Source: Candidatus Latescibacterota bacterium (GTDB taxonomy: Bacteria > Latescibacterota > UBA2968 > UBA8231). Taken from it: a stretch of DNA of 64,000 bases. The stretch covers positions 1,728,001 to 1,792,000 of the forward strand of contig OZ241867.1 in NCBI GenBank assembly GCA_965203175.1, read 5' to 3'. Within the stretch, counting starts at the first letter, position 1. Each line of letters opens with the position of its first letter. Positions 15,077 to 36,192 of the stretch are shown here, in pieces. A model generated the notes under the pieces. That model had not been told where the DNA came from. It saw only the letters and a program-made list of their open reading frames with translations, and ran no database searches. Both the position numbers and the translations under genes were made by a program.

Positions 15077-15087
15077 AGGATAATTCA

Positions 15088-15996: not shown

Positions 15997-16039
15997 TCTG
16001 TGGTGGCCAGAATGCCCTAATAGAAGACAGGAGATTGCT

Positions 16040-17623
16040 ATGAGTAACGGATGGAATGACCTGCGCGGTTATTATCCTGGAGATTGGGTCAGGCCCAGGC
16101 AGAACGCGGGGCATTGGCGTCCATTGGTCGATTGGACGGAGGTTTTTCCGGGCCATCGCTCCGTCGACCGAGCGGGTGCATTCGAACTCTACGATGCTCC
16201 CATCGGCGTCCGCTTGGCGATCGAGGAGGCAGACAAATCGGCTCCGCTCGAGTTCGATGGCCAAGTGAATGATGACGGCGATGGTGTAGGCAATTCCGTG
16301 CGGGTGTGGCAGGCGGATGACCGATACCACCTGCTCTACTACCAGGGGAGACGCGTCGCTTATGCGGTAAGTGAAGACGCGTACCGCTGGACCCGTCCCG
16401 CCTTGGGCATCATCGAGAAGAACGGCTCGAAGGAGAACAACCTAGTCACCGATGTGGGGGGCGACCTGCTCAAAGCGGTATTCGAGGATCCAACCGCGCC
16501 ACCGGAAGAGCGGTTTAAGGGCATGGGTTGTGAGGGAGCTATGATCAATTCGGAGACCGGAGGGGTCGCCAACGAGGGCGAAGAGGTCGACGAGGAATAC
16601 ATACAAAAGTGGTGGGCCGATCAGGAATACTTGGGTCCAGCCTACAAAGGGCCTAAGCTGATTCTCAAGGGCCGGGTAATGGGATGGGTCTCCCCCGACC
16701 GCATTCACTGGAAGCGGACCGACAAGATTCTCGCCGATTTTCCCATGGATGGGGGCCTCTCCGCCAGATACGATGAGAAATCCGGTTACTACTACGCCTA
16801 CTGTCGCATCCAAGGCGTCCCCCAGGAACAGTTCGACCTGATCGGCAGCGGTGTTCCAGAGGATGGCATTTTCCACCGGGCGATCGGGCTGACCCGGACC
16901 AAGGACTTCAACCACTGGCCCGCTCCCAAGCTCCTCCTCTTTCCAGATGGTCAGGACGAGCCCGACCTCTCGTTCTACGGCGGCGATTACTTTCCCTATC
17001 CGAGTAGAGACGATCTGCACTGCATGTTGGTACAGGCCTACCATCACGCCACCGACCACGTGGACAGCCAGCTCGCCATCAGTCGCGACGGTTTGATTTG
17101 GCAGCGGCCGGAGCGCAAGCCGATTATTTCGGTAGGCGCTCCGGGTGCGCCCGACTCGGCCATGGTCTATTCCTGGGGCAGCGGCATCGCGGAATTGCCG
17201 GACGGCAATTGGGGGTCTCTCTACGGAGGGCACACATCGCTACACAACGCACCGCAGAGAGAAGAGGCGGTGTTGCAGTGGGCTCGGTGGCGGCCCCACA
17301 GATTCTGCGGCATTGAAGCGGATGTGGAGGGCCGGTTTACCTTGCCGACCGTAGTGAGAACCGCCAGTCAGCTGAAGCTCAACTACCGCTGTCGCCCGGG
17401 TGGCTGGATCAAGGTCGAGATTCTGCGCAACATTCCCTCGCGGATTCACCCCGACGTCGATCCGGTCGCCAGCCTGACCTTTGAAGAAAGCGATCTGCTG
17501 CAAGGAGATTCGCTCGACCAGACGGTCACCTGGAACGGCAACAGCGACTTGTCCGAGGTGGGTGAGATGTTGGCGATTCGGATTCGGATGTTTCAGGCAA
17601 AAATCTTCGCGTACCGCGTTTAA
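16040..17623 (+). CDS. Uncharacterised five-bladed beta-propeller (GH32/43/130-like) protein
   Basis: Repeated Asp-box-like S.D...W motifs (SEDAYRW, SPDRIHW, TKDFNHW, SRDGLIW); homologue of 60426..62015. Confidence 0.65.
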   Translation: MSNGWNDLRGYYPGDWVRPRQNAGHWRPLVDWTEVFPGHRSVDRAGAFELYDAPIGVRLAIEEADKSAPLEFDGQVNDDGDGVGNSVRVWQADDRYHLLYYQGRRVAYAVSEDAYRWTRPALGIIEKNGSKENNLVTDVGGDLLKAVFEDPTAPPEERFKGMGCEGAMINSETGGVANEGEEVDEEYIQKWWADQEYLGPAYKGPKLILKGRVMGWVSPDRIHWKRTDKILADFPMDGGLSARYDEKSGYYYAYCRIQGVPQEQFDLIGSGVPEDGIFHRAIGLTRTKDFNHWPAPKLLLFPDGQDEPDLSFYGGDYFPYPSRDDLHCMLVQAYHHATDHVDSQLAISRDGLIWQRPERKPIISVGAPGAPDSAMVYSWGSGIAELPDGNWGSLYGGHTSLHNAPQREEAVLQWARWRPHRFCGIEADVEGRFTLPTVVRTASQLKLNYRCRPGGWIKVEILRNIPSRIHPDVDPVASLTFEESDLLQGDSLDQTVTWNGNSDLSEVGEMLAIRIRMFQAKIFAYRV

Positions 17624-19600: not shown

Positions 19601-20371
19601 TCAGGGCATCCAGATATTCCACTTGCCATACTTTTCCCAGATGCGACAGGCGTCACAGGTACACATCAACCGGAGTGCAAAACGCGGTTTGTTACTTGTA
19701 TTGAGAGATCCAGAGTGTATCAACAGATAATGAAAAAACAGTACATCTCCTCGGGAAGGCCTCAACTCAATCGGCTCTCCCAGACCGAACCTTTGTTGCG
19801 GCTTCTTAAAATCTGACAGCATTTGATACCGGTCAGAGTTCTGCACTGCCGCCTTGCTGAGCTTCCGATGCGATCCTGGCCAGACCGCAGTACCACCACC
19901 CTGCGCAACACCAGAATCGAGATAGGTCAGGGAAGAGACGCGGAATGACCCGGGAAAGACATTGAAAGGTCGATGTCCACCATCGACGTGCCCATTGCTA
20001 TAATCCCAGTCTTTCGAAACCGGAAATACACTGCGTGCCCAGACTCCCTCTGGTTGTGGCTTCTGACAGTGAAATGCACCTGCATTTTCCCGAGCCAGTT
20101 GGCTCTGTACTTCGTAAAATGCGGGAGTACAACAAGCCAACAACGCGGGATCTTGAACCCCAAAATGTTCAATCACCCCCTGGCTGACGATTGTGTTTAC
20201 CCCATCTGTTTCGTCTGGCAAAGGAGACCACGAAGCCGGATCATCCCGATCTACCCCGAGCACAGACCACATCGCAACTTCCGCATTGGCAATTGTCTCT
20301 TCTGGAATCAATCCCGACACCAGCACATACCCATCTCGGTCATATTGCGTCAGTTGCTCCTGTGAAAGCAT
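19601..20371 (-). CDS. PhyH-family dioxygenase
   Basis: Y.RDGY, HVD, GGT..WPGSH, GDVLFFH...HSG..N...R. Confidence 0.9.
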   Translation of the reverse strand: MLSQEQLTQYDRDGYVLVSGLIPEETIANAEVAMWSVLGVDRDDPASWSPLPDETDGVNTIVSQGVIEHFGVQDPALLACCTPAFYEVQSQLARENAGAFHCQKPQPEGVWARSVFPVSKDWDYSNGHVDGGHRPFNVFPGSFRVSSLTYLDSGVAQGGGTAVWPGSHRKLSKAAVQNSDRYQMLSDFKKPQQRFGLGEPIELRPSRGDVLFFHYLLIHSGSLNTSNKPRFALRLMCTCDACRIWEKYGKWNIWMP

Positions 20372-20397
20372 AGACTCCTCCTAGATAGATCGAATTA

Positions 20398-20438
20398 TGT
20401 ATAGAAAAAATAAGGCATCGATATCGGTACTATGCAGT
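20398..20438 (-). repeat. IS91/ISCR oriIS-like repeat, copy 1 (short)
   Basis: TGTATAGAAAAAATAAGGCATCGATATCGGTACTATGCAGT matches the first ~40 bp of the copies at 23391, 26073 and 32727. Confidence 0.8.
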
Positions 20439-20461
20439 CTTCAGCCCCCAGCCCCCACTTC

Positions 20462-21199
20462 TCAATGCTTACACGCCACATGTCGATCTTCGTAGATTCC
20501 CTTTGGAAACTTTTCTGGATTGAGTTCTTCAGGCATATAATGCCATGCCGTGCTATAGCGCGTGCGATTGCTGTGGTTATCATAAGCACCGTGCAGGAGA
20601 TTGGCGGAAAACAGGACAACCGTGCCAGCGGGAATGACCACATCCACAGCCTGCGATTCATCGACCTTTGTCCAACTGCCATGCCTGCTTGGATCCCTGC
20701 GGTGCTCGACAATCTCGCCCATCCGGTGGCTGCCGGGCACCACCCGCAAACACCCATTCTCCACATCTGAATCTTCCAGATAAATTCCACAACTGATAAT
20801 GCGATCCGTATCGGTGCCAAAATAAAAGTTGTCCTGATGCCAGCCCGTTGACGTGCCGCCATTGGGCAACTTGGGAAAAAACTTAGTGCCAAACACATCG
20901 ATATTTTCACCAATCAATACGGCCACGCGGTCTAAAATCGCCGGTTCACGCGCCAGTTCCAACACGCGGGCATCGACCACGCAAACCCCCTGCACTTTGT
21001 GCAACAAACCCGCCTGGGGTTCGCCGCGCTCGTCCAACTCAAGCGTCCAGTGCGGCACCTGCTCGGTCAACTTGCATCCTTCTGCGACCAGTTCATCAAA
21101 CACCTGCTTGTAATAGGCCAATCGCTCGCCTTGTATCAGGGCTGCAAAAACGAGATAGCCCTGTTCTCGGAACTGTCGCACCTGTTCGTCTGTCAACAT
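20462..21199 (-). CDS. PhyH-family dioxygenase
   Basis: F.EQGY, WHQD, NGCLRVVPGSH, LHG..N.S...R; GGAGG RBS. Confidence 0.93.
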   Translation of the reverse strand: MLTDEQVRQFREQGYLVFAALIQGERLAYYKQVFDELVAEGCKLTEQVPHWTLELDERGEPQAGLLHKVQGVCVVDARVLELAREPAILDRVAVLIGENIDVFGTKFFPKLPNGGTSTGWHQDNFYFGTDTDRIISCGIYLEDSDVENGCLRVVPGSHRMGEIVEHRRDPSRHGSWTKVDESQAVDVVIPAGTVVLFSANLLHGAYDNHSNRTRYSTAWHYMPEELNPEKFPKGIYEDRHVACKH

Positions 21200-21300
21200 A
21201 AAAACCTCCTCGACTTCGCGGCCTGAACCAACTCTCGCTCTAGCAATTTGTAATAGGCTGCAGAATCAGTCGTCGCCTTTTTCTTTAACAGAGCCTGCGA

Positions 21301-21334
21301 TGTATAAGAAAAATAAAGACACCGGCTCGGTGCC
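21301..21334 (-). repeat. IS91/ISCR oriIS-like repeat, copy 2 (short, diverged)
   Basis: TGTATAAGAAAAATAAAGACACCGGCTCGGTGCC: same terminus and a CACCG/CGGTG palindrome at the same offset. Confidence 0.55.
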
Positions 21335-21375
21335 ACCACCTCTTACCGGTGACCCGCTTGGCTACTGGCGGTTGG

Positions 21376-21403
21376 GGAGCGGCGCGCCTCAGGACGCCGC
21401 TCC
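21376..21403. terminator. GC-rich hairpin after the tandem-PhyH gene
   Basis: GGAGCGGCG-N10-CGCCGCTCC, 5 bp past the stop codon; no U-tract. Confidence 0.4.
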
Positions 21404-21408
21404 GAATT

Positions 21409-23160
21409 CTACCTAGCCAGCGAGGGTGGTGACACGCCTTTCCCCCCTTTCAACACCAGGAAATTCCTGGCCTCATCCACAGCGGGCTTCCCGGCGGGGT
21501 CCACCTTCATGGGCCCTCCGTTCCCGCCGTTGGCATCCTTGTCCCAGATTCTGTCATCATACCCATCGGGAGCATACTGACAGATGTAGGCTTTGCGCAC
21601 GCTATCGGTGTTGTTGGCCCCTGTAAAGTGCGGCGTCAGGCTCCAGAAGATCGCCGCCGAGCCCGCCTTGACCGGCACACAGACGGCATCGTCGGATCTA
21701 AGGCCGCTGATCGTCCAGCCACCGTTGCTCTCATCGAACTCGTGAAGCAGCGGCCCTCGCCGGAAGAGCCTCGGCACGAACCACGGGCAGCCGTTTTCCT
21801 CGGTTGCATCGTTGAGCGCTACCCAGCACGACAGGTATTGCAGGGGGTCAATGAACGCAAGGCCAATGTCCTGATGGCAGGGGAAAACCCGCCCAGGGCA
21901 GGGCTTCGTGTACACCGCCTGCTCCCGGTACAACCGCACATCGTCGCAGTTGAGCAGGTCGTGGCAAACCTTCTGGAAGAACGGGCCGGCGCAGAATGAG
22001 CGGGCAAGCGCCGACCCCCGGGCCAGGCCGCTCGTAATGGTGATCCGATCAGCATTCGCAATCGTGCGCGACGGCTGCTGCCGCCCCCTGGCTTCGAGGT
22101 GCCGCACACTCTCGTGCTCGAGCCGATCGAATTCATCCCGCAGCTGCCCGATCTCCGCAGCGCTGAAGGCATCCTCGACCACAGTGAACCCCTGGAGATC
22201 CATATCGTCCGCCTGATCCCTGGTGAGGATCCGGAGAGGAGCATCCTTGCGTGTCGGCAGGAGCGACGGGTGCTTGCTCGCGCTGCTGAACTCCATGGCC
22301 GGATGCCGCGGCAGTCGCGCGTTGTGCTGAGCAGCCGGCGTCGGCTCGTCGCCCGTGGACCAGCGTGCGGTTCCGTCGAAGCCGAGGCGCTCCCACAACA
22401 CGTGCGGCCACTCCCTGAAGCCGCTTGAGATGTAGTGGCATGCGTAGACCTGGCGAAAGACGGTCGGGTCGCGCCCCATCAACCCCCGGTGCCACAAATG
22501 GCCGTCGAAGATCACGGCTGTTCCCCTTTTTGCCACGATGTGCACCTCCTCCGCCCCTGCCGCTTCGTTCTCCTCGAAAATCTCCTTCCTCAGCCTAGCA
22601 CCTAGCTCCGGGTCGCCTGAGTGCGTGCGATAGCCCGCCCACTTTCCCTGCCGGAGGTCATCGTGGTGAAGCTTGCGGCGAAGGTGGCCGCCTGTCTGCA
22701 GCGCGAGCGTGCCGATCTCCTCGTCCACGTCCACGAGCGGAATCCACACACCGATGCAGCCCGGAAGCGGGGTTCCGTCACAATGCCAGCTCTGCGACCA
22801 CTGGCTGCCCTTCCACCAGTAGTGGCTCTTGATGCCCTCGGGCTCTTCCCCGCCCAAGGCATCCTTGAGCGGTCCGCGCAGCTTCGGATGCAGCATGAAA
22901 GCGCGGCAGACGGGGTCGTGGATGTGGCACTGATCCGTGTCGATGAGATGGTCGGCGCTTTCCGCCGGCGGGACGATTCCCTCGACGGGGATTTCGCCCG
23001 CGTGCACGGCGTCCATATGCCGGATGAGCCCGTCGCACTCGTCGGCGGTGAAGAGCGAAGGCACGGCGACCCACCCGTCGCGAGCGTACTTCCGCCTCTG
23101 CTCGGTGGTGAGGCCCGCCACCTCCACGTGGCTGGGTTGGGTGTGTTCGGAGCCGGACAT
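21409..23160 (-). CDS. Protein with two tandem PhyH dioxygenase domains
   Basis: Domain 1: Y.RDGW, WHCD, WHRG. Domain 2: QGF, CHQD, NGC..VP, PH.T..N...R. Start set at MSGS (ORF open to 23319). Confidence 0.82.
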   Translation of the reverse strand: MSGSEHTQPSHVEVAGLTTEQRRKYARDGWVAVPSLFTADECDGLIRHMDAVHAGEIPVEGIVPPAESADHLIDTDQCHIHDPVCRAFMLHPKLRGPLKDALGGEEPEGIKSHYWWKGSQWSQSWHCDGTPLPGCIGVWIPLVDVDEEIGTLALQTGGHLRRKLHHDDLRQGKWAGYRTHSGDPELGARLRKEIFEENEAAGAEEVHIVAKRGTAVIFDGHLWHRGLMGRDPTVFRQVYACHYISSGFREWPHVLWERLGFDGTARWSTGDEPTPAAQHNARLPRHPAMEFSSASKHPSLLPTRKDAPLRILTRDQADDMDLQGFTVVEDAFSAAEIGQLRDEFDRLEHESVRHLEARGRQQPSRTIANADRITITSGLARGSALARSFCAGPFFQKVCHDLLNCDDVRLYREQAVYTKPCPGRVFPCHQDIGLAFIDPLQYLSCWVALNDATEENGCPWFVPRLFRRGPLLHEFDESNGGWTISGLRSDDAVCVPVKAGSAAIFWSLTPHFTGANNTDSVRKAYICQYAPDGYDDRIWDKDANGGNGGPMKVDPAGKPAVDEARNFLVLKGGKGVSPPSLAR

Positions 23161-23390
23161 TTCAGTGGGAATCGCTACTTCGGTCGCGCGAAGGCGACGA
23201 GCGCGGCGTCCGATCCGGTGCCCGTAGCGATGACGACGAACTGCCGCCCCGACCGCGCGCGGTAGGTCATGGTTCTTGGGCACCCGCGAGGGCGGTAGAT
23301 AAGAGGGCGGCTGTCGCAACTAATCGCTTCATGAAGAGGACAACTGAATCATAGTTTCGCGGCGTATTCTAGATATCATGGATTGACCTA

Positions 23391-23526
23391 TGTATAGAAA
23401 AAATAAAGGCATCGATATGGTTCTATGCAATTCGCTGAAAACGCTACAATTCACCGAGAACGTTCGCAAGAGTCCGGCAGAGTCCCTGATGACTCGCCTG
23501 TCGTCGCATCGAATTGTTCGGGAATT
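23391..23526 (-). repeat. IS91/ISCR oriIS-like repeat, copy 3 (~19-bp internal insertion)
   Basis: Aligns with 26073 and 32727 through TTCGCTGAAA..CGCAAG..CCTGATGA..TGTCGTCGCA.CGAAT.GTTCG.GAAT. Confidence 0.8.
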
Positions 23527-23664
23527 ACACACCGGTGTAAATATGATGCGGCTATTCCCTCGGTCAACCAAGAATGTTGATTTTGAGTTTGGTGATCAGC
23601 TAGAGATGAAAGTGCACGCTCAATTTGAACTCGAAAAACTAGCCTGTTGAGCTTTTGCCCCAAA

Positions 23665-24456
23665 TCAATTGATTGGAGTACTCTCAAGCGTCTCCAGCCA
23701 GCGATAGCCGTAGGCCGGCACTTCGGGTGACCCGGTCATGCCGTCGGGAAACATGCCAAACCGCTCGACGCGCAGGCGGTAACCGTAGTCGTGCCAAGGC
23801 TGGAAGCCCACGATCTCGCCGCGGAAGGGGGCGCCGTTGACGACCTTGCAGTACCCGGGATAGCCGTCGTCGCACTCGACCCTGTGGGCATCCACGGTAA
23901 TCTCCTCTTCCGTGCCCGCGGCCTTGGTTCTCGAGACGACTTCGCTCAACACGTATCGACCATCGCCATACCTGTTGGCTTCGAGGATGTAGTGGTGGCC
24001 GGCCTCGTATTCGAAGCTAGTGATCATGTCGTCGTACGGTGCGCCGTCCACCACCAGGCAGAAGTCGTCACTCTGGGCGCATATCACCCGCGCCGGACCC
24101 ACCGACAAGGTTGCGGGGATGGATGGTGCTGGGGTCTTCTCCAGTTGCTCCAGCAGGCGGTAGGCGTACCGGCCGGCGTCCTGCGGCGGCTCCTCCCCAC
24201 CCCAGGGATCGTACTTGCCGATCCGCAGGCGATAGTCGTAGCCGGGCTCGTATTCGAATCCTTCGATTCCATCGTAGAAGAACTCGCCGTCGACCACCAT
24301 GCACGACTGCAAGCCCACGCCGTAGCACTTGGCTAGGGTGGGGCCGACGGTCACCTCCCGTATCTCGAGGTATCCGGCGTCCGGTCCTGTGGAACGGTCA
24401 CAGCCGGCAAAGACCAAGGTCAGCAGGAAGAAGACAGTAGAACTTCTGGTGCGCAT
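23665..24456 (-). CDS. Lipoprotein with three DUF4377-like repeats
   Basis: Lipobox VFAGC; three units of C..(C).VVDG..F...I.GF.YE.GY.Y.L. Confidence 0.8.
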   Translation of the reverse strand: MRTRSSTVFFLLTLVFAGCDRSTGPDAGYLEIREVTVGPTLAKCYGVGLQSCMVVDGEFFYDGIEGFEYEPGYDYRLRIGKYDPWGGEEPPQDAGRYAYRLLEQLEKTPAPSIPATLSVGPARVICAQSDDFCLVVDGAPYDDMITSFEYEAGHHYILEANRYGDGRYVLSEVVSRTKAAGTEEEITVDAHRVECDDGYPGYCKVVNGAPFRGEIVGFQPWHDYGYRLRVERFGMFPDGMTGSPEVPAYGYRWLETLESTPIN

Positions 24457-24567
24457 TGGAGTCCTCCCTCGGTACGACTACCGCCACCTTTGCGTCCCGC
24501 ATTGGATCGCAACAGGCTCTGACGGCTCTACTCCAGAATCTAAGTACACGACAGTAGAGCGGTATGG

Positions 24568-24641
24568 GATGCTTCGCTCCGCTCAGCATGACAGGGCCTC
24601 ATGTTGTCATGTTGAGCGGAGCGAAGCGGAGTCGAAACATC
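24568..24641. repeat. REP-like palindromic element pair
   Basis: GATGCTTCGCTCCGCTCAGCATGACA ... TGTCATGTTGAGCGGAGCGAAGC(GGAGTCGAAACATC): long imperfect inverted repeat of the GTCATSCTGAGCG..GCGAAG type. Confidence 0.75.
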
Positions 24642-24704
24642 TTATTCCTCGATGCCCATGCGTAACGTTACTGTCGTGTATTAAGCTCTAGAATATACCG
24701 AAAG

Positions 24705-26039
24705 CTATAGCCCCTGCATCGCTGATTCGGGATCGAGAATTACATCAGCAGCAATCAATCGATCCTGTAGCTCGGCCATCGGTACGCTACGACTATCCAC
24801 ACCTGTTGCCCTTGCTAGCGCCGCGGCCGTGCCAGCAGCCTGCCCCATGCCCATCGAATTAGCTGTGACTCGACTTGATGCCAGGGCCTCTGAAGTTGCC
24901 GAGTGACAACGACCCGCAACCCAGAGATTCTCCACGCCCTGCGGCAGCAACGTTCTGTACGAAATATCGTACGGCGGTACGATCGGCTGATCGTGATACC
25001 CGGCTGCGTCCTTGGGATGCCGGTCTATCCTCCACGCCCCAAGCACTACCACGTCATCCTGTCGTTTCGCCGTTCTTATATCGTCGCCGGTCAGCGTGTA
25101 ATCGCCGACGATTCTTCTGGATTCTCGCGCTCCAGCCGTCGGACCACTGGTGAAAAAGTATGCGTCTTTGAACTCGGGTAGTGCTTCTTTCCAGAGCTCA
25201 AACATGGTCCACGCATCGCGTCGGCCCTGGATTTCTGCGTTCGTCCAGTCTTGCGGATTCGTTGCGTTTCCGGGTGTGCGAATCACATTGAAATAGATGT
25301 CTCGACCGGAAAAAGTTGCCGGCCACGGGCCACCATAAAGGCCGATCTTTCCTGCGGCACGTGCCTTCTCCAGAACGGCCGCACATTTGCGACGCAGCTC
25401 AAATGTAAGTTCGACAAAGCCAATTCGGAAATGCAGGCTCATCGGCTGCAGCGATTCGGCGACCTCGTATGGACATCCTGCCCAGGCGGCGACATCGGCA
25501 TCACCCGTGGCATCGATAACGCACTTGGGTCGTATGGCGGTGAGGCCGTCTTTGTTGCTGACTACGACACTGTCCACCCGGTTTCCCTTGACGATCACGT
25601 CAGACACCTGGGTGTGGAAAAGCAGATTCACGCCAGACTCGATTAAAATCTCATCCGCAGCCTTCTTGAACAACTCCGGATCAGTGCGCGGAATCACGCG
25701 ATCAGGATGCTTTTCGACCTCGGTGAAATCGCCGTTCACGTTGTATGAGAGATGTGGAGCCTGCCCGGGCTCAACCACACCCATTCGTTCGAGCATCTCA
25801 AAGACAAGTCCACCCACAACAGGCTTACCCGTCTCTTCGTAGACGAATCCATCGAACGCCGAGCCGATGATGTTCGTAAAGAACCCACCGGCAAATCCCA
25901 TGCGGTCGACAGCCATCACAGAAGCCCCGTTCCGCGCCGCGCTAACAGCCGCGCCAATACCCGCCAGCCCCGTTCCGCAAACGAGAACATCGGGTTCAGC
26001 GACTACGGGAAGTGATTTTGTGTACTGGATTATTGACAT
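24705..26039 (-). CDS. FAD-dependent oxidoreductase (FAD_oxidored family)
   Basis: DVLVCGTGLAG, IDATGDAD, RESRRIVG, PYDISYR.L.P, NLWVAGRC. Confidence 0.9.
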   Translation of the reverse strand: MSIIQYTKSLPVVAEPDVLVCGTGLAGIGAAVSAARNGASVMAVDRMGFAGGFFTNIIGSAFDGFVYEETGKPVVGGLVFEMLERMGVVEPGQAPHLSYNVNGDFTEVEKHPDRVIPRTDPELFKKAADEILIESGVNLLFHTQVSDVIVKGNRVDSVVVSNKDGLTAIRPKCVIDATGDADVAAWAGCPYEVAESLQPMSLHFRIGFVELTFELRRKCAAVLEKARAAGKIGLYGGPWPATFSGRDIYFNVIRTPGNATNPQDWTNAEIQGRRDAWTMFELWKEALPEFKDAYFFTSGPTAGARESRRIVGDYTLTGDDIRTAKRQDDVVVLGAWRIDRHPKDAAGYHDQPIVPPYDISYRTLLPQGVENLWVAGRCHSATSEALASSRVTANSMGMGQAAGTAAALARATGVDSRSVPMAELQDRLIAADVILDPESAMQGL

Positions 26040-26072
26040 GGTTTGATTCTTTCTTAATCCAATTTTTTATAA

Positions 26073-26228
26073 GATAGGAAAAGTAAGGTGCCGATATCAG
26101 TACTAATCAGTTCGCTGAAAACGCACGCAAGGGGCCAGCAGGGCCCCTGATGAATCGATTGTCGTCGCACCGAATCGTTCGCGAATACTCAGAGTACTGT
26201 TGTAAAGAATTTCGGCGCGGTTCAGGGG
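26073..26228 (-). repeat. oriIS end of an IS91-family element, copy 4 (attached to transposase relic)
   Basis: Minus strand ends ...CCTTACTTTTCCTATC about 225 bp downstream of the IS91 transposase stop; aligns over ~155 bp with 32727..32890. Confidence 0.8.
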
Positions 26229-26296
26229 TCAACCTAGTACTTGAGGGCACACTCCTCCGTACGGCTCACGGCGCAGGGAGCGAATCGCGGAGGAGG

Positions 26297-26775
26297 TCAG
26301 GCGACGAACTCGAACTGCGGCTGCGGGGGTGTCTTGGGTGGGCACCGCCGGCCGGCCTCCCCCCTCCAAATACCCTGGATCGAGGTAGGATCGGTCAGGG
26401 CGGCCACGATCCGCAGGGGCCGGGTAGCCGTTGAGCTCGGCGGCAAACACCCAGGCGATGGCCGCAGGGCGGAGCGCTTGAATCGCGGTCCACCGCCGTC
26501 GACTCTTCGACCGGCTTGGCGGGCACGATGCGGCCGCGATCCCGGGCACGGAGGGGCCAGGACCCTGTGGTAGCGCAGGAGATGAAACCGGGGCGGGGGA
26601 CCAGAGTTGCCAGCTTCTCCAGTAGGTCCATCGGAGAGAGTAGAAGATAGCTCGTGCCATTCGACCAAGGCGTTTTGAGCGCGAAGGAAAGCCGCTGCGA
26701 ATCGAGGATGCGCAGACGCCTCGCCGCCAGGGCCGGCCGGGCCACGTAGCGGAATAAGCGTTCGAGCCCCGCTCG
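26297..26775 (-). pseudogene. IS91-family (Y2/HUH rolling-circle) transposase, frameshifted 3' half
   Basis: LERLFRYVARPALA..RL..LKTPWSNGT..PMDLLEKLATLVP / RFHLLRYH.VLAP / LRIVAALTDP..QFEFVA* spread over several frames. Confidence 0.88.
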
Positions 26776-26957
26776 TGGCCATCGTCAAGGAACGACTCCA
26801 TCTCGATCTATCTTTGCATGCGATGCTACAAATTCTCAGCGTCACGCCTTTCGAAACAGTACCGCTGATTCAACTATTTACCGTACCCCGCCGCCTCAGG
26901 AAATCCCTGATGCCCATAACCAACTGTTTTTGCTATGAAACGTGTCGGACACTACTG
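26772..26957 (+). mobile_element. IS4-family transposase 3' fragment with right terminal IR
   Basis: LVAIVKERLHLDLSLHAMLQILSVTPFE resembles the IS4 C-terminus; ends ...CGGACACTACTG. Confidence 0.72.
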
Positions 26958-27136
26958 ACAACACATGAAGATTGTCGAGTTCGACGCTAGACTCGCATGG
27001 GGTGCGGCCTAACTACCGTAGCATCACTTCTGGGATGGCACAGTAACCCACCGGCCCGAACGACTTCGCACGCCCTACGAAATCATCGTCGGGGATCGGT
27101 GATATGTATACGGTGGCCCTAGTGCGTTGTAGCAAA

Positions 27137-30100
27137 CTATCCCACCAGCTCAAAAGTTTCATATCTCACTCTTTCGCCTTCAAACTCCTTCACTTGCCTA
27201 GACATATAACGCCCTACCGTCTTTTCTATTCTTGATACTTCCTCTCCGCCCAGAACCGAGATTTCCGAATCCTTGTTCCCAAGAGAATTGTAACTCGTTC
27301 CCAAACGAAGCCCCACTCCTTTTGACAAGATCCAGCGATCGTGAAAGGGCGCAACACCATTCCTTTCAGTGCCTACAACCAGGATTTCTGTTTCCGGAGG
27401 GGCATGCTCGCAAAGTTTTCGCCAAGCGGTGGTGTATGCACTAGGCAGGTCGCTGTTAGTGTTGGGTCCGAGTTGGTGTGCCTTGCTTGTGACAATTTGT
27501 ACGTGAAGATCCGGGTCTGCCTCTATTACTTGAACCACAAAATCCAAGTCATTTACCCCAAAGTAAGGATCGACAATGGTGATACTGTCCACGGCGTTTT
27601 TGTCGAGCCAATCCTGGAGGTATTGTTTCGCCTTGTCCCGTTCACCAAACTGAATGATGACTATATTGTCTGCGTCGCCTCGGTCCTGCCACTCGGGATT
27701 CGAACCCAATCGGCCATGTCTTTCGGTTATGGAAAAGAAAAACTCCGCGCCCCGCAACACACCTTCAAATAGATCTCTAATATATGTCTTCGATTCACTA
27801 GTATAAGAATATTTTATGAGCGCATTAGACAGTATCCACGAATAGATCGGGTACGATGTTTTCAACGGATAGTTGCTAGCGCACACGAGCATTTCACGCA
27901 GCCGAACCATGTCAGTGGCTATCATGCGACCAGAATTGAGTGCACCGAGAGCTCGCCACGCTGCCAATGCTAGGCCCGGGTCGTCTTGCAGCGTTTCCAA
28001 ATCAAGATGACTACGCGAGTCTCCCAGGTCCTTTCTTAACTTATGTCCATCTAATTGTAACCTCGCGCGTTCCCTGTATTCGTCGCGCGCGGGATCGTCG
28101 TCATATAGCATAGCCAACTTCATTGGTAGTTCGGGATCGAGGCGGTAAGCTAGGTCTATGATCTGGTTTTCTCTAAAGGCAGTTCGCCGGGAACCTGTAT
28201 TGATTATTAGACCGAACGCCTTTTTCAAAGCGCGCGAAGCAAGCTCTCGGTCCCAAGCAATCGTTAGATCGGTGATAAGAAAGAGATGACTGTAGCGGTC
28301 TTCGATAGTCGGTAAACTGTCGGTTGTTAAGTCCACATCTTTCAACAATCGCTTGGCGTGGCGGTGCTGTTTCGATGGGAGGCTAACGGCCAGTTCGGCC
28401 AGTACAAAAATTCGATCGGCCATATTACTGATTGACTCGCCCTCCGCTATGAGTTTGGCCCACGTTACGTCGGGAGATGCTGAAATTCGCAACGCCTCTG
28501 CTTTGCAGAGAATTTGGTATCCCGCATGTTGTATCCGGTTTGGGAGAGGCAATCGCCGTTCGGCAATTTCGAGCATCCGCCGGGTAATGTCTGCTTTCTG
28601 GTCCCGAGTCAGATGAATCGATGTTCGAGGTGCTGTGACGGCTGACGCGATGCTGTGGAAAATCCTATAAATTGTAAAGTCTTCGTCGGTTTCGTCACAC
28701 AATTGTAGTAAATTCTGAATATCAGAAAAGGTGAGACGTGAGGCGGTTGAATTTGTGTCGTCAAAGGGTTCTCCAGGCGGTTGTTTTCGTAACAGGGCGA
28801 AGCTGAGGGCTGACGTGCAATCCGCTTGCACGGATGCGGGGAATGCGGAAATCCCACTTCGGGCCCGATCTCTGTCGTCAAGCCACACCGCGGGATAGGC
28901 ATACCGCCATGCCTGATATGCGGTCGCGCAATCCTTCCCGGAGAGATTAGCAAGTGCCGGCCACACGTGTTCGTTCACTACGTCGGAGAATGCGCGAGAT
29001 TCTCCTGCGCGCCAGAGATAAAACGCTAGGCTGGACAATAAAGTGACCCGCTCTTGTAAATCTGGTACTCTAACAGCCATGCGGCAAACCCTGTCTATGT
29101 CGGTGGCCACAAGGAGTTTAGATTCCGCTAGTGCGTAGGCTGCTTTCATCAAGAGATCCACGACGTAAATGATACCCTGTTCGACATCCTCGCTTCCAGA
29201 AACCAATCTGCTTTCTGTGGCCAAAGAGTCAAACACGGTTTTTGCCAAGTCGGGGCGTTTCTGTCGTAGTGTGGGCACCAGTTGACAGGCTGTTCGGTAT
29301 TTGGCTCGAGGGCTGGCGATGGAATCAAACGCGGCTAGGAGGCTGTCATCCACAGAGGTACGAAAAACGTCGTTATCCTGTGAACTACCAAGTGTAACCG
29401 CGATTTCGGCAAGACACTTCGTTTTGATTACTGCGGAAGAACATGCCGCTAAACGAGGGAAAACGCAGTTTAGATCGATCGACGGGCGAGTGCCGGCGTC
29501 TACATCAAGACAGAAGCGCTTTACGGTGTCCCAGATCGCGGCGTCGAACTGCTCGCAGGGGCCCATTTCATTGAGTGCGGCAAACAATACGGCGCTATTG
29601 AGAGTAATTGTGGTGGCCTTGCACATTGAAGCCACTATTTCGCGAAATGCGCTAGTTCGACGGTCTATGGTGTTAAGGCGACGAGAAACGTCGAGCGCGG
29701 CTTCCGGTTTAGAACTTGCTAGTGCCGTAATGGTATCCTTAAGTATCTCGAACTGTTCCGCACTAGCTGCGAGTATTTCGGTAAGTGTTTGGGCGAACTC
29801 AGTGTCCACCATAGCGCCGACGTCGGACAATTGGTCCAACTTTCGCGAAGGGTCGAACTTGTGTAGCTCGGCGATGAACCATGCGAGGCAAGTGATTCTA
29901 GTCTCCAATTCGTCAAGGGAGTCAATTGGGTCTAAATATAGTTCTTCGAGACGGTCTACTGTTCGGGCGAGATCGCCATCTGCGTAATTGCATCCCGCCA
30001 AGCGGAGCTGTAGTCGGACATAATCGACGATTGGGCCCTTGTTTCGTATAACCTCCTTTTGCCCGTCAAGCATGGCGACGATGCGCCGACATCTGTCTCG

Positions 30101-32095
30101 ATCGACTGCGTACGGAAGGGGTGCAGAAAGTTCGCGATAGACCGCGGCGGTCGGGGTGAATTGCGGGGTAGCGATGGCGTCGTGGATGCCTACTTCAACC
30201 ACATCGAGTGCATCACTTCGTAACGGATGTCGCGCAACCCACTTTCTCAGGATGAACAACCTTTCACTAGAATCGCTAATGGAGTGGGTTACGTCTAGGA
30301 CGTCGGCGGCTGACTTCGGATGGAAGAAAATCTCGCTGGCGTCCAACAGGCGGCGAAGTTTCTCGTCGACCATGAGGTCTTTCGGAACGGGCGGTAAGGG
30401 ACTTTCGCTACCGCGTGTCTCGTGGGTGTTTTTGGTCCTGAGTGCAGCTACGGTGACTCTCGCCAAGGCAAGTTCAAATGAACCATCGTCCACTTGGGAA
30501 TGCGTGACCGTTTTTAGAAGGTTCAACGCGAGCTCGGCGTCGATCGGATAGAGATCGGTGGCGATATCTATCCCTTCTTCTGTGGGCAAAGACCCAAGAT
30601 CGAGACTTTGGTAGATCTGTCGGATCTCTTCCAATATTGGTGTCGCGTCAAAACCGGGGCTGTTGGAAAGTGCGTCAACGGTAACTGCTAATAGGCGCAT
30701 ACGTTGTGTGAGTAGCGGTACATCGTTGGCGACCGCGAGAGCTCCGTCGACATCGCCGACTGCGCTGCGCGCTCGGATCTCGTGCTCTATACCGGTTGTC
30801 TGTGAAGCCTGTTGAATTATTGACCTAGATAGTGAGTAGGTGGTGAGTGCGCGGTCTCGTCGCGCTTGGTGGCATATATTTATGGCGCTGCGCAGCGTTG
30901 GTTCTATTCCGGCTGCAGTTCGTGTCTTGAGTAGTATGGTGGCCAGTCGGCGCTCATGTAGCCAATCCACTAGTGCGTCCGTTTTTCCCGCACGTTCTAA
31001 ATACGTTGGGAGTTGAGTCAGTGATTCGGGTGAATCTGGCTTCTGGAGTAACATTTCGGCGATGGCTTCGGTGGCCTCGGATACGAGTGCTCCGAGGTTC
31101 CGGTCGGCAAAACTTCGGAAAGCGTCCGACGAAAACTCCCAACCCTTCGCCTTCTCTGAGTAGAGAAGAAATGGTAGCGAACTAAACGCGTTGTCGATAT
31201 TCGTTTTGGTTGTTCCACAATGAGCCGCGAGAGTCTGTGAATCTACAGGAGAGCCGTAAGCCACAATAAATCCCAAGGCTCGATGGATCTCCATAGGTGA
31301 CTGGGAGATGACAGTCCATTCGGTTTCGAAGAGAGACTCAATGTCTGTGGGGAATTCATTCAGAATCTCAGAGACGTCTTCTGGATTGGAAGCAAGGCGA
31401 CGCCTCACACTTGCGAGGATGGCCGGTACCCCGCCAAATACCGGGTGAATTTCAGCTCGCAACTTGTCATCTGTTACTAAGTCCTTAAAATACTCGTTGG
31501 TCTCATGCGGGCTAAACGGCGGTAACGGATATGATTTCGCTCGTAGCGTTCGCTTGGTAGCGCCGCTAAGTACGTCGCTCATTTCCCCACTGAATAGGAA
31601 CCTGAATGGTTTGATTCCGAGTGGTAGAAGGTTCAATAATGCTTGGCGGATTGAGTCGTCGGCAGATGGAATATGGTGAAAACCGTCAACAATGATGTAC
31701 CCCGGGTTACGGGCACGGTCCAGTACACGGGCACATTTACCCCACAAATTACGAAGATCTCCGTCGGTTGGGTCGCGGTTGTCGGGTAGCCGCCTGTCGG
31801 TTAAGTACCAGTGAACTTGGTCTGCCAAGTCATGGCGCGCAAAAACTGGGTCGTAGGCTAATCTGCTAGGCGCTTTGAGGAATAGTCCAAAACACGGTTC
31901 GTCGACACTATCGGCAAACTCTAACAAAAGAGTGGTCGTTCCCCAATTCGATGGTGCTTCGACGCATACAACGTCGGTATTCGAGACAAACATGTGGGCT
32001 AGCGTTTGAATTAGGTGTGGTCGGCGAACGTGCGGGTTCGGGAGTGCCGGCGCAGTCAAGGAGACATCCAGAATTCTGGCGGTGCTTCGGGTCAT
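27137..32095 (-). CDS. 1652-aa protein: STAND-like P-loop domain, long alpha-helical (TPR/HEAT-like) region, C-terminal PLD-like domain; candidate anti-phage protein
   Basis: Walker A-like VCVEAPSNWGTTT, Walker B IIVDG; C-terminal IVDPYF ... FHDRWIL ... GTSYNSLG..SEI. Confidence 0.7.
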   Translation of the reverse strand: MTRSTARILDVSLTAPALPNPHVRRPHLIQTLAHMFVSNTDVVCVEAPSNWGTTTLLLEFADSVDEPCFGLFLKAPSRLAYDPVFARHDLADQVHWYLTDRRLPDNRDPTDGDLRNLWGKCARVLDRARNPGYIIVDGFHHIPSADDSIRQALLNLLPLGIKPFRFLFSGEMSDVLSGATKRTLRAKSYPLPPFSPHETNEYFKDLVTDDKLRAEIHPVFGGVPAILASVRRRLASNPEDVSEILNEFPTDIESLFETEWTVISQSPMEIHRALGFIVAYGSPVDSQTLAAHCGTTKTNIDNAFSSLPFLLYSEKAKGWEFSSDAFRSFADRNLGALVSEATEAIAEMLLQKPDSPESLTQLPTYLERAGKTDALVDWLHERRLATILLKTRTAAGIEPTLRSAINICHQARRDRALTTYSLSRSIIQQASQTTGIEHEIRARSAVGDVDGALAVANDVPLLTQRMRLLAVTVDALSNSPGFDATPILEEIRQIYQSLDLGSLPTEEGIDIATDLYPIDAELALNLLKTVTHSQVDDGSFELALARVTVAALRTKNTHETRGSESPLPPVPKDLMVDEKLRRLLDASEIFFHPKSAADVLDVTHSISDSSERLFILRKWVARHPLRSDALDVVEVGIHDAIATPQFTPTAAVYRELSAPLPYAVDRDRCRRIVAMLDGQKEVIRNKGPIVDYVRLQLRLAGCNYADGDLARTVDRLEELYLDPIDSLDELETRITCLAWFIAELHKFDPSRKLDQLSDVGAMVDTEFAQTLTEILAASAEQFEILKDTITALASSKPEAALDVSRRLNTIDRRTSAFREIVASMCKATTITLNSAVLFAALNEMGPCEQFDAAIWDTVKRFCLDVDAGTRPSIDLNCVFPRLAACSSAVIKTKCLAEIAVTLGSSQDNDVFRTSVDDSLLAAFDSIASPRAKYRTACQLVPTLRQKRPDLAKTVFDSLATESRLVSGSEDVEQGIIYVVDLLMKAAYALAESKLLVATDIDRVCRMAVRVPDLQERVTLLSSLAFYLWRAGESRAFSDVVNEHVWPALANLSGKDCATAYQAWRYAYPAVWLDDRDRARSGISAFPASVQADCTSALSFALLRKQPPGEPFDDTNSTASRLTFSDIQNLLQLCDETDEDFTIYRIFHSIASAVTAPRTSIHLTRDQKADITRRMLEIAERRLPLPNRIQHAGYQILCKAEALRISASPDVTWAKLIAEGESISNMADRIFVLAELAVSLPSKQHRHAKRLLKDVDLTTDSLPTIEDRYSHLFLITDLTIAWDRELASRALKKAFGLIINTGSRRTAFRENQIIDLAYRLDPELPMKLAMLYDDDPARDEYRERARLQLDGHKLRKDLGDSRSHLDLETLQDDPGLALAAWRALGALNSGRMIATDMVRLREMLVCASNYPLKTSYPIYSWILSNALIKYSYTSESKTYIRDLFEGVLRGAEFFFSITERHGRLGSNPEWQDRGDADNIVIIQFGERDKAKQYLQDWLDKNAVDSITIVDPYFGVNDLDFVVQVIEADPDLHVQIVTSKAHQLGPNTNSDLPSAYTTAWRKLCEHAPPETEILVVGTERNGVAPFHDRWILSKGVGLRLGTSYNSLGNKDSEISVLGGEEVSRIEKTVGRYMSRQVKEFEGERVRYETFELVG

Positions 32096-32468
32096 GTTCT
32101 TTCTTTAAGCTCGGTTTGGCGGTCCCGCATCGCGGTGCGCCTGGGGATGACGAGGCGAAGACCGTAGTCAGATGGCAACTGTGTGACATCAAAAGCAACT
32201 GCGTGCAAGGAACGAAAGGCGCAACAACCCTGCAGATTATAGGTTACACGTGAGTTCGGATAATTATCACAAACTGGCATCAGTAGTGCGTCTTTGTCAA
32301 GGTGTCGAACCGACGCTCGCTGTCAACCCTTTGCTGGGCCATGTCTCGCCTCGGCTCCGGCTTCGTGTGGGTGAGGTGTTGGGGTGAGGACCCAGTAGGG
32401 GTTAGATCGGGCGTCTGATGGGAGGGGGGGGTGCCATCACCCTTGGCATCAACGAAAATAAATTGGGG

Positions 32469-32517
32469 TGTAAACCGTGTTCGCGGTTTGTTCTGTAAAC
32501 TGTGTTCGGCTCGTACA
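32469..32517 (+). mobile_element. Probable IS481-family right end relic
   Basis: Two subterminal direct repeats TGTAAAC(C/T)GTGTTCG, ending ...GGCTCGTACA. Confidence 0.45.
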
Positions 32518-32532
32518 CTGGTGTCTCGGAAC

Positions 32533-32647
32533 GGCTTTGTTGCACGAAAAACGGTAACTCGTTAGAAAACAATAGTTTACGAAATTTGATAGCAAAACGC
32601 TAACTTACTGTAAAACAACGACTTATAGATATTCATGCAACAACGCC
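32533..32647. mobile_element. 115-bp MITE of the IS5 family, IS903 group
   Basis: TIRs GGCTTTGTTGCACGAA / reverse complement GGCGTTGTTGCATGAA (14/16), like the IS903 IR GGCTTTGTTG; perfect 9-bp TSD TCTCGGAAC at 32524-32532 and 32648-32656. Confidence 0.88.
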
Positions 32648-32726
32648 TCTCGGAACTGAAGTCCCCGGGCAGGTGCGGAATGTGTCGCCACTCAAAAGGC
32701 TATGCTGCGGATAGGAGCGATGTCGA

Positions 32727-32890
32727 TGTATAGAAAAAATATGGCACCGATATCGGTACTATGCGGTTCGCTGAAATCGTACGCAAGGGTCCAGCAGATT
32801 CCTGATGAATCGTTTGCTGTCGCACCGAATCGTTCGGGAATGCTCAGAGTACCGTTATAAAGGATAAAGGGTTTCGGCGCGTTTCAGGGG
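32727..32890 (-). repeat. IS91/ISCR oriIS-like repeat, copy 5 (long)
   Basis: TGTATAGAAAAAATATGGCACCGATATCGGTACTATGCGGTTCGCTGAAA...TTTCGGCGCGTTTCAGGGG; perfect palindrome ACCGATATCGGT at 32746-32757. Confidence 0.82.

Positions 32891-32904: not shown

Positions 32905-36192
<3,288 letters not shown>

Follow-up and report, generated by a model that had tools for sequence, protein, structure and literature searches.

Five copies of one non-coding repeat, found in a 64-kb stretch of a Latescibacterota chromosome (64,000 nucleotides, here called the window), are probably fossil right-end (oriIS-side) stubs of ISCR-type elements, whose interiors were lost by deletion or recombination and which were possibly reused as outward promoters. 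A repeat search and MAFFT alignment of the window placed all copies on the same strand with a common left boundary and with a truncated inner side, where 35 to about 290 bp are left:

20397..20438, minus strand: copy 1, terminal 42 bp of the ISCR-like 3' (oriIS-side) end (nhmmer E 1.5e-05)
21300..~21335, minus strand: copy 2, ~35 bp of the end, hairpin loop differs (nhmmer E 0.13)
23390..~23525, minus strand: copy 3, ~136 bp of the end, interrupted by a 19-nt insertion (nhmmer E 4.4e-32)
26070..26363, minus strand: copy 4, decayed terminus, whole 3' non-coding end and last transposase codons (nhmmer E 2.3e-50)
32726..32890, minus strand: copy 5, 165 bp of the end, with the sole intact 12-nt palindrome (nhmmer E 3.4e-49)

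On the minus strand, the exact boundary shared by the five copies reads …TTTTTYCTATACAT. When as many as 3 mismatches were allowed, the 18-nt terminal motif CTTATTTTTYCTATACAT was matched four times in the 64-kb window, always on the minus strand and by copies 1, 2, 3 and 5; shuffles gave an expectation of 0.03 matches and none of 100 reached four. In copy 4 the terminus has decayed to CCTATCTTAT. Between them, repeat search, alignment and motif statistics recovered the five co-oriented repeats that an earlier, sequence-only reading had described. The truncation it reported was real as well, but copy 4 does not end at ~165 bp: its repeat alignment spans 26070-26228, and homology to the copies of G001 and G040 continues to 26363 and 26330, respectively, so that this is the longest stub. 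A subterminal palindrome had also been described as retained. The perfect 12-nt form, ACCGATATCGGT, was present within the window in copy 5 only (and in the copies of L060, from another genus), while copies 1, 3 and 4 have mutated forms of it and copy 2 has another loop. Upon folding as ssDNA the best value, -4.5 kcal/mol for copy 2, was equalled or beaten by 16 of 200 shuffles, and no copy had a hairpin significantly more stable than its shuffles. The flanks beyond the terminus vary (AATT, CGCA, AGGT, TAAT and CGAC); a conserved IS91-type target tetranucleotide (CTTG or GTTC) abutting oriIS was not seen among them, CTTG occurring only at the second PhyH2 junction described below. Genome-wide, nhmmer returned the five copies and three weak relics at 5965090, 3984867 and 2186331, which makes the repeat nearly confined to one locus. 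The poorest match among the five in this search is copy 2, yet the motif is present there with 2 mismatches and other species have orthologues of this copy. An 86-aa plus-strand ORF starting at the copy 3 boundary, in which some substitutions looked synonymous, was considered as a small protein and dropped, as indels make the frames of copies 3, 4 and 5 disagree; a small plus-strand RNA was dropped after Rfam gave no match for the repeat at E up to 0.1.

Sequence comparison identifies the five repeats as 3' (oriIS-side) ends of an ISCR-like IS91-family element, in line with the original proposal. A Y2_Tnp remnant directly adjoins copy 4:

26300..26775, minus strand: dead IS91/ISCR-family transposase, residues ~306-480 of ~480 left, in two frames

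Pfam Y2_Tnp matched 26395-26784(-) of the window (E 3.8e-11, C-terminal part only), and tblastn with an intact relative as query aligned two stretches of its 480 residues, 306-414 and 365-480, in different frames. The remnant lacks both the HUH motif and the N-terminal zinc-binding domain, and its stop codon lies 221 bp from the copy 4 terminus (~225 bp had been estimated). In other Latescibacterota genera the five-copy profile matched at the same position and in the same orientation downstream of intact family frames of 455-594 aa, with the end about 220 bp past the stop codon. Another genus, represented by L060, has six full copies within 20 kb (E 1e-41 to 1e-47), four of which end ...GGTGCCTTATTTTTCCTATACAT. 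The AT that follows CTATAC had been taken for a continuation outside the terminus; in L060 CCTATACAT ends four of the six full copies. Because the AT or TT after CCTATAC differs by subfamily, it is part of the element itself.

The intact 481-aa relative L029 matched Zn_Tnp_IS91 (8e-21) and Y2_Tnp (5e-29) and scored 364 bits (1e-108) against the NCBIfam model 'ISCR clade Ia', which is below the cut-off of that model. Identity of the intact relative to ISCR1 and ISVsa3 was 38-41% over 91-95% of the length. According to termini taken from plasmid records, ISCR1 ends ...AAAAAGGTGGTTTATACTTCCTATAC and ISVsa3 ends ...AAAAGGGCGTTTATTCTTCCTATAC, both about 230 bp past the stop codon, and the terminal motif TTCCTATAC is common to the window copies, ISCR1, ISCR2/ISVsa3 and about 130 termini in four related genomes. 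No terIS-side DNA was found in the 64-kb window, and a single fragment of it lies elsewhere in the genome (2185959-2186111); the left end of the relatives bears a GTGAGG...CTTCAC inverted repeat, with the exact boundary not fixed. A search of the 6.58-Mb genome for an intact IS91-family transposase was negative: PF04986 gave one match, the remnant itself, to which tblastn with an intact transposase added one 32-aa scrap. As the remnant is the only PF04986 match, no transposase is present to act in trans, contrary to what the sequence-only reading had postulated, and the stubs are now unable to transpose in this genome.

The stubs punctuate a run of co-directional genes, assigned with Pfam, beyond which lie one further gene and katG:

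19601..26039, minus strand: co-directional gene run punctuated by stubs
19601-20371, minus strand: PhyH1
20462-21199, minus strand: PhyH2
21409-23319, minus strand: tandem PhyH
23665-24456, minus strand: DUF4377
24705-26039, minus strand: FAD-dependent oxidoreductase
27137..32095, minus strand: 1652-aa gene, between copies 4 and 5
32950..35187, plus strand: catalase-peroxidase katG, divergent from the array, constant neighbour of the copy 5 inner end

The terminus of copy 1 lies 25 nt before the PhyH1 ATG, with its inner end 24 nt after the PhyH2 stop codon; the distance from terminus to ATG is 100 nt for copy 2 and PhyH2 and 33 nt for copy 4 and the FAD oxidoreductase. For copy 3 a distance of ~230 bp to the tandem PhyH start had been given, but the first possible start codon of that ORF (TTG at 23319) is 70 nt away. 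Copy 5 faces 630 bp of non-coding DNA followed by the 1652-aa gene, and its inner end is joined to the katG upstream region, a repeat-katG junction common to all genus genomes aligned. Among the loci fetched, the 1652-aa gene was found in this genome only. Its protein has no Pfam family and a C-terminus that is weakly VPA1262-like, and PADLOC gave no family for it or for two ORF pieces in a 2-kb insert of G013. The GC content of the modules in the run ranges from 0.51 to 0.65, and their presence varies among other species.

The array is old and inherited, orthologous across the genus, and the same junctions recur in other species. The repeat was present in 15 of 24 other genus genomes, at the same locus wherever the locus was fetched, with flanking proteins 93-98% identical and a fourfold-site identity of 0.85-0.92. 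Orthologues of copy 1 were found in 8 other genomes, 6 of which have a G-to-A change in the palindrome, and those of copy 2 in G003, G012, G011 and G021. At the repeat-PhyH1 junction most species have 42-46 bp of the repeat, while G013 has repeat positions 2-159 and G040 positions 12-117; by this comparison the 42-bp length of at least copy 1 stems from later rearrangement of a longer repeat and not from capture. G022 lacks copies 2 and 3 owing to a deletion between two TGATT microhomologies. Every difference between species that could be resolved is either a microhomology deletion or a change by one repeat period, the latter of which homologous recombination between repeats explains equally well, and most differences look like deletions or recombination. 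Such inherited junctions, a secondarily shortened copy 1 and differences of this kind speak against the serial capture that had been proposed for this genome. Copies 4 and 5 are separated by 6.65 kb, a stretch of exactly one repeat period that is missing in G010 and G021. Their single repeat gave no assignment to copy 4 or copy 5, the diagnostic sites being alike in all copies and the differences private to one of the two. The genus loci compared yielded no empty site for any of the stubs. PhyH2 has two independent repeat junctions, CTTATACAT followed by CGCAGG... (100 nt before the ATG) and CCTATAC followed by CTTGAGGAGGAACAAGAATG, which suggests recurrent placement or selection. Between species copy 1 shows roughly 0-4 changes per 42 nt in a by-eye count, and 112-118 of 119-123 fourfold sites of PhyH1 are identical. 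Since these sites are conserved as highly as copy 1, no constraint on the stub was seen, 42-nt stubs being too short for power.

In our reading, ISCR-like elements were already present at a katG-PhyH locus when this Latescibacterota genus split into species; original deposition by rolling-circle transposition from oriIS would follow from family membership. The transposase has since died, its frameshifted C-terminal third surviving beside copy 4 with no other copy in the genome. Deletion and recombination have stripped the element interiors, leaving the last 35 to ~290 bp with the terminus always included, and the stubs would act as short direct repeats at which modules get lost, swapped or joined. 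Set against such a fossil origin, all five stubs retain the terminus and face a co-oriented gene, whereas in plain debris the loss of either end would be expected; the GC range of the modules (0.51 to 0.65) is as expected for a mosaic of several sources; and random decay does not explain the strict co-orientation of the arrays in relatives, described below.

The stubs may possibly be reused as outward promoters or 5' leaders of the genes 19-100 nt beyond the terminus. Transcript starts would in that case fall a few nt past CTATACAT and depend on TATACA. The divergent katG-FADox spacer of G010 and G021 measures 258 bp, of which the repeat occupies 158, with 30 nt from terminus to ATG; in G023 the katG-PhyH2 spacer is the repeat itself and the terminus lies 19 nt from the ATG. 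According to the available text of PMC6218425, outward promoters have been shown experimentally inside the last 232 bp of the ISCR1 oriIS region, and variable genes start 0-1211 bp beyond oriIS. A scan for sigma-70-like promoters returned nothing inside the terminal 42 bp, and copies 2 and 5 score as terminator-like on the gene-sense (minus) strand. A 1084-nt metatranscriptome contig (run X4) covers PhyH1, copy 1 and PhyH2, contigs being unable to reveal transcript starts and stretches without coverage being uninformative. In metatranscriptome contigs from other community members PhyH1 is joined to different upstream sequence, and the stub is therefore not indispensable. At older junctions, in this genus and G040, a co-oriented start was found within 121 nt in 9 of 14 cases, by crude ORF calls and at junctions that are not fully independent, which we take as a hint. 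A promoter role of the stubs is plausible by exclusion only.

Related genomes carry 19 to 75 ends each, in arrays of up to 28 termini in 150 kb. All 95 pairs of neighbouring termini within 20 kb were co-oriented in four related genomes. Their 37 inner truncation points were all distinct, with the terminus kept in every case; the breakpoints shared no tetranucleotide, and 137 kb of arrays held no copy that kept the terIS side alone. The cargo between the ends (37 ORFs scanned) comprised PhyH (5 ORFs), sulfatase, xylose-isomerase-like TIM barrel, aldo-keto reductase and similar proteins. The earlier idea of an array with cargo between its ends is supported to this extent, by strictly co-oriented arrays with metabolic genes in the relatives, but active capture in the present genome is not. 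Termini pointing into genes did not emerge as a general rule, the adjoining gene in the younger arrays of relatives being co-oriented in 23 cases and opposite in 16 (n=39, crude ORF calls, no clear bias). One additional terminus-to-terminus unit is present in G131 when compared to G132. The two are 99% identical in the unit and 95% identical over the final 124 bp of the tail, which fits a crossover inside the tail. In an orthologous, 99% identical unit of relatives, a 703-bp internal deletion shortened the tail and spared the last 124 bp. A duplicated 2.3-kb module with a PhyH pair has no IS ends at its bounds in the relatives. We consider the mechanism that builds the arrays in the relatives to be the interesting part of the finding.

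These arrays leave some room for a reading which we regard as possible but not probable, namely that Latescibacterota ISCR-like elements build co-oriented arrays in which each unit ends in a precise oriIS terminus, an oriIS-to-oriIS stretch is a cassette, the stub doubles as outward promoter and the window is a fossil of such an array. Units would carry PhyH dioxygenases, sulfatases and sugar-phosphate-isomerase-like enzymes and would be added at a resident oriIS junction or shuffled, with ori-to-ori excision as in rolling-circle plasmids with two origins. If true, this would be the HUH-transposase counterpart of the integron.

That each stub is an independent abortive rolling-circle product, inserted strand-specifically between the genes of a pre-existing cluster that were never cargo, seems unlikely to us. 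Right-end fragments of 229, 360 and 679 nt made up 26% of events for IS801 in the available text of PMC3189936, copy 1 starts at GGAC/GAAC, an IS801-type tetranucleotide, and both the 37 different inner breakpoints with their constant terminus and the lack of terIS-only copies in 137 kb of arrays would be expected from such products. Those same breakpoints, however, have no tetranucleotide in common, copy 1 came to its 42 bp from a longer repeat at that junction, a later internal deletion cut back an orthologous tail, and none of the stubs has an empty site.

Quite unlikely, in our view, is the integron-like expression array of the sequence-only reading, in which working non-autonomous oriIS anchors receive blocks of oriIS plus cargo by one-ended rolling-circle transposition through a transposase in trans. 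For IS91, IS1294 and IS801, both one-ended transposition and the mobilisation of flanking DNA have been documented (available text of PMC13181058 and PMC3189936). The 95 of 95 co-oriented pairs, the metabolic cargo of the relatives (PhyH, sulfatase and others among 37 ORFs), the extra unit of G131 and the one-period interval of 6.65 kb absent from G010 and G021 are all consistent with such an array. But the genome has no transposase, and rolling-circle capture moves terIS-side DNA and should bring the whole element, whereas the units here hold a stub only. Recombination between direct repeats yields one-period indels equally, the diagnostic sites did not tell whether the single G010 repeat corresponds to copy 4 or to copy 5, and the drop in G131/G132 identity from 99% to 95% in the last 124 bp fits a tail crossover. 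The duplicated PhyH-pair module without flanking IS ends, the co-orientation of the downstream gene in only 23 of 39 cases and the decaying palindromes likewise argue against it.

A native regulatory module of a katG/PhyH regulon (palindromic operator and promoter), lying beside an IS remnant by chance, is highly improbable: the perfect 12-nt palindrome of copy 5, the position directly upstream of genes and the near restriction to one locus would suit it, but in other genera this 160-bp sequence is found behind transposase genes and ends in the ISCR terminal motif, three of the five copies have a mutated palindrome and Rfam has no match, so that the ISCR end in other genera contradicts this origin and leaves secondary reuse as an operator as something that may have occurred.

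Fossil ISCR-type stubs thus remain the preferred reading, and they can be set beside known elements. To our knowledge, ISCR elements are known almost solely from resistance plasmids of clinical bacteria, and we know of no direct demonstration of ISCR transposition. Why ISCR cargo lies on the oriIS side is still debated, and the present lineage offers natural material for this question. With ISCR1 the stubs share the transposase family, an oriIS about 230 bp past the stop codon, the terminal motif ...AAGGTG..T.T..TTCCTATAC and variable genes just beyond oriIS that its promoters can drive (available text of PMC6218425). They differ in that the protein of the relative is only 38% identical, the host is an uncultivated Latescibacterota chromosome, the neighbours are dioxygenases and oxidoreductases and not resistance genes, and five orphan stubs without a live transposase are present, whose promoter activity is inferred. 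ISCR2/ISVsa3, in the tet(X3) and floR contexts, has the same terminal motif and complete and truncated co-oriented copies that bracket cargo upstream of the transposase gene, with circular intermediates reported (available text of PMC7758954); there, one or two recent plasmid units are found, in contrast to a chromosomal fossil array of stubs here. Around virulence genes of Pseudomonas syringae, IS801 likewise left right-end fragments of variable length that keep the ori end, and the authors ascribe most genomic fragments to reorganisation, in which they serve as homology regions; its experimental fragments begin at a GAAC-like tetranucleotide, whereas the 37 breakpoints here have no common one, and strict co-oriented arrays are not mentioned in the available text (PMC3189936).

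With integron cassette arrays the likeness is one of layout only, co-oriented short structured sites alternating with promoterless-looking genes. The sites here are ends of HUH-transposase elements, and unit boundaries are at most candidate recombination points. If the stubs act as promoters, transposon ends would have been domesticated as control regions in a dioxygenase/oxidoreductase cluster; if transposase rather than recombination builds the arrays, this would be a second, independent way to assemble gene-cassette arrays. In the limited collection of literature searched, no description was found of arrays of truncated IS91/ISCR copies or of IS91 in Latescibacteria. The lineage comprises uncultivated, apparently marine or sponge-associated bacteria, and as a whole it holds hundreds of termini; some of its genomes have transposase genes that look live, while others have fossil arrays.

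Five copies of the repeat were recovered by repeat search, MAFFT and an nhmmer profile. All lie on one strand and share one boundary, the terminus, which reads ...CTTATTTTTYCTATACAT on the minus strand. These copies, with the ORF between copies 4 and 5, are:

From 20397, minus strand: copy 1, 42 nt
From 21300, minus strand: copy 2, about 35 nt
From 23390, minus strand: copy 3, about 136 nt
From 26070, minus strand: copy 4, at least 159 nt
27137-32095, minus strand: 1652-aa ORF, GC about 0.51 (genome 0.59)
From 32726, minus strand: copy 5, 165 nt

With up to three mismatches allowed, the 18-mer CTTATTTTTYCTATACAT matched the window four times, always on the minus strand, against 0.03 matches expected from shuffles; the terminus of copy 4 is decayed. 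The five co-oriented repeats with a single boundary and varied lengths described in the sequence-only reading were thereby confirmed, and the whole-genome count it had called for yielded only the five window copies and three weak relics elsewhere (profile search of 6.58 Mb). The subterminal palindrome that it regarded as retained is perfect in copy 5 (ACCGATATCGGT) and in no other copy. None of the five copies folded better than shuffles as ssDNA.

Copy 4 runs on into a broken gene, one frame of which matches Pfam Y2_Tnp. Compared with an intact relative of 480 residues, this remnant corresponds to residues 306-414 and, in a second frame, 365-480. When the remnant was used to search 168 genomes of the phylum, 36 gave matches; other genera within the same family have open frames of 455-594 aa. 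The relative at locus L029 has the domains Zn_Tnp_IS91 and Y2_Tnp, reaches 364 bits with the NCBIfam model 'ISCR clade Ia', which is below the model cut-off, and shows 38-41% identity to the plasmid ISCR1 and ISVsa3 transposases. The five-copy profile matches the DNA just downstream of relatives' transposase genes, antisense and with position 1 farthest from the gene, and the likeness among these copies stops at one exact point, ...GGTGCCTCATTTTWCCTATAC, followed by TT. A second subfamily, represented in 20 kb of locus L060 by six full copies, aligns with the window repeat over its full length (E-values 1e-41 to 1e-47) and has the terminal sequence ...GGTGCCTTATTTTTCCTATACAT in four of the six. 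Read from plasmid records, the termini of ISCR1 (...GGTGGTTTATACTTCCTATAC) and ISVsa3 (...GGGCGTTTATTCTTCCTATAC) lie about 230 bp past the stop codon; in the window, 221 bp separate the stop codon of the remnant from the terminus. Copy 4 does stand downstream of a decayed IS91 transposase, and both motif and distance agree with the known ISCR ends. The adjoining Y2_Tnp remnant, the same end after relatives' transposase genes and the motif of ISCR1 and ISVsa3 together identify the repeat as the oriIS-side (right, 3') end of an ISCR-like IS91-family element, as had been proposed. Transposase, oriIS position and oriIS terminal motif are those of the IS91/ISCR family; the conserved target tetranucleotide of the family was not found. 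The feature is a decayed new representative of known ISCR/IS91 elements. Close precedents for the shortened copies, or stubs, are the shortened co-oriented copies around cargo in ISCR2 and the right-end miniatures of IS801 (PMC3189936). In the literature searched, neither large co-oriented arrays of ends like these nor IS91-family elements from Latescibacteria are described.

Nothing in this genome is able to move these ends. Pfam PF04986 has one match, the remnant itself, tblastn with an intact transposase returned the remnant and only a 32-aa scrap more, and no DNA of the opposite, terIS side lies within the window. The intact transposase postulated to act in trans was thus not found in the 6.58-Mb genome and, with no transposase beyond the remnant, an active integron-like capture mechanism is not supported here. 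The window stubs are fossil right ends of ISCR type that have eroded from within and have no transposase.

The repeat occurs in 15 of the 24 other genomes of the genus and, outside the genus, in one genome of another family (G040); none of the 15 genomes searched in two more families had it. All genus loci fetched carry it at the katG-PhyH position of the window, beside proteins that share 93-98% identity with the window's, and the stubs predate the divergence of the species compared. G010 has the simplest layout, PhyH1 / repeat (42) / PhyH2-FADox / repeat (159) / katG, to which the window adds DUF4377, the tandem PhyH and two more stubs, with the transposase remnant and the 1652-aa gene lying between copies 4 and 5. 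Several differences between species are plain deletions: the DUF4377 stop codon and the PhyH2 leader are fused at a TGATT microhomology in G022, 55 bp of that leader are missing in G003 and G012, and only 19 bp of copy 2 are left in G021 and G011. The repeat-PhyH1 junction is identical everywhere, with 42-46 bp of repeat in most species. Since a longer repeat is found at this junction in G013 (positions 2-159, with 2 kb of other genes behind) and in G040 (positions 12-117), the short copy 1 is a secondary state. Two unrelated junctions join PhyH2 to a repeat terminus, and the 3' flank of PhyH2 has the same end point in four contexts. Copies 4 and 5 are spaced by a period of 6.65 kb that may have been inserted or lost; the sites that tell the two copies apart are private to each. 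The locus is a patchwork still being rearranged, with stubs at many seams.

At the usual site of the 42-bp stub, the 2 kb in G013 (L023:5787-7677) hold a 364-aa ORF, then 162- and 115-aa pieces, and are followed by a 175-bp repeat inside which the last ORF ends; the 364- and 115-aa pieces matched no PADLOC family. G040 has two near-identical copies of the whole PhyH1...repeat...katG locus on two contigs (L015 and L016), with proteins 77-84% identical to the window's. This could be a duplication, two replicons or an assembly effect.

The stubs may serve as short direct repeats for recombination, the role concluded for IS801 fragments in Pseudomonas syringae (PMC3189936). By analogy with ISCR1, in which outward promoters have been proven within the last 232 bp (PMC6218425), they probably also provide the following gene with its promoter or leader. 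The repeat makes up 158 of the 258 bp between katG and FADox in G010 and G021, and its terminus lies only 30 nt from the ATG; in G023 the katG-PhyH2 spacer is the repeat. A sigma-70 scan found nothing in the terminal 42 bp and scored copies 2 and 5 as terminator-like, and stub conservation is at the neutral level.

The part worth following is the array phenomenon in relatives. A 23-nt terminal pattern (≤3 mismatches) matched 75 times in G132, 20 in G131, 19 each in G127 and G128 and not at all in G130; the reversed control pattern had no match. The termini are clustered, for example 28 in 150 kb, and 95 of 95 neighbouring pairs ≤20 kb apart have the same direction. The copies keep the terminus and end inwards at 37 different cut positions, which have no tetranucleotide in common; copies keeping only the other end were not seen in 137 kb of arrays. 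Among 37 inter-terminus ORFs scanned, five are PhyH dioxygenases, and others encode a sulfatase, xylose-isomerase-like barrels, an aldo-keto reductase, a GNAT protein and a methyltransferase. Such arrays might be taken to behave as gene cassettes delimited by termini; however, the gene past the terminus is co-oriented in just 23 of 39 cases (crude ORF calls), and a duplicated 2.3-kb PhyH pair of 97.6% identity has no IS ends at its borders. Between G131 and G132, moreover, a unit is 99% identical, the last 124 bp of its tail are 95% identical and the flank switches exactly at the terminus, as a crossover inside the tail would give; the same tail has a 703-bp internal deletion in one species. 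G131 has one additional terminus-to-terminus unit, which could stem from recombination or transposition.

At L058:9637-11415 (G132) and L030, single frames of 593-594 aa begin as a xylose-isomerase-like TIM barrel (AP_endonuc_2) and continue directly as the C-terminal half of the transposase, with the junction at the HUH-motif region; L061:2567-4210 is fused in a similar way. They may be genuine chimeric genes or frames that are open by chance.

The 1652-aa ORF matched no Pfam or PADLOC family; its C-terminus showed a weak VPA1262-like match (E 1.2e-10, below cut-off), and among fetched loci it occurs in this genome only. Upstream of it, 78 non-coding nt (32571-32647) recur at 1426326-1426403 of the genome with 90% identity, and in G002 a similar motif replaces the repeat before FADox. 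Just upstream of the tandem PhyH ORF (636 aa), a short signal-peptide-like frame (23270-23335, minus strand; MKRLVATAALLSTALAGAQEP, then stop) is out of frame with it, perhaps through a frameshift or because the start is mis-set. Over 15000-16200, at the left of the region, GC falls to 0.42-0.45 (genome 0.59). Finally, the FADox/DUF4377 interval contains an element of about 155 bp (24534-24690) with a 23-nt-arm inverted repeat (96% complementary), which BLAST matched 27 times in the genome. Across four metatranscriptomes its contig depth was very high, its flanks were many and varied, and there were contigs that skipped it exactly; it resembles a MITE or REP-like repeat.
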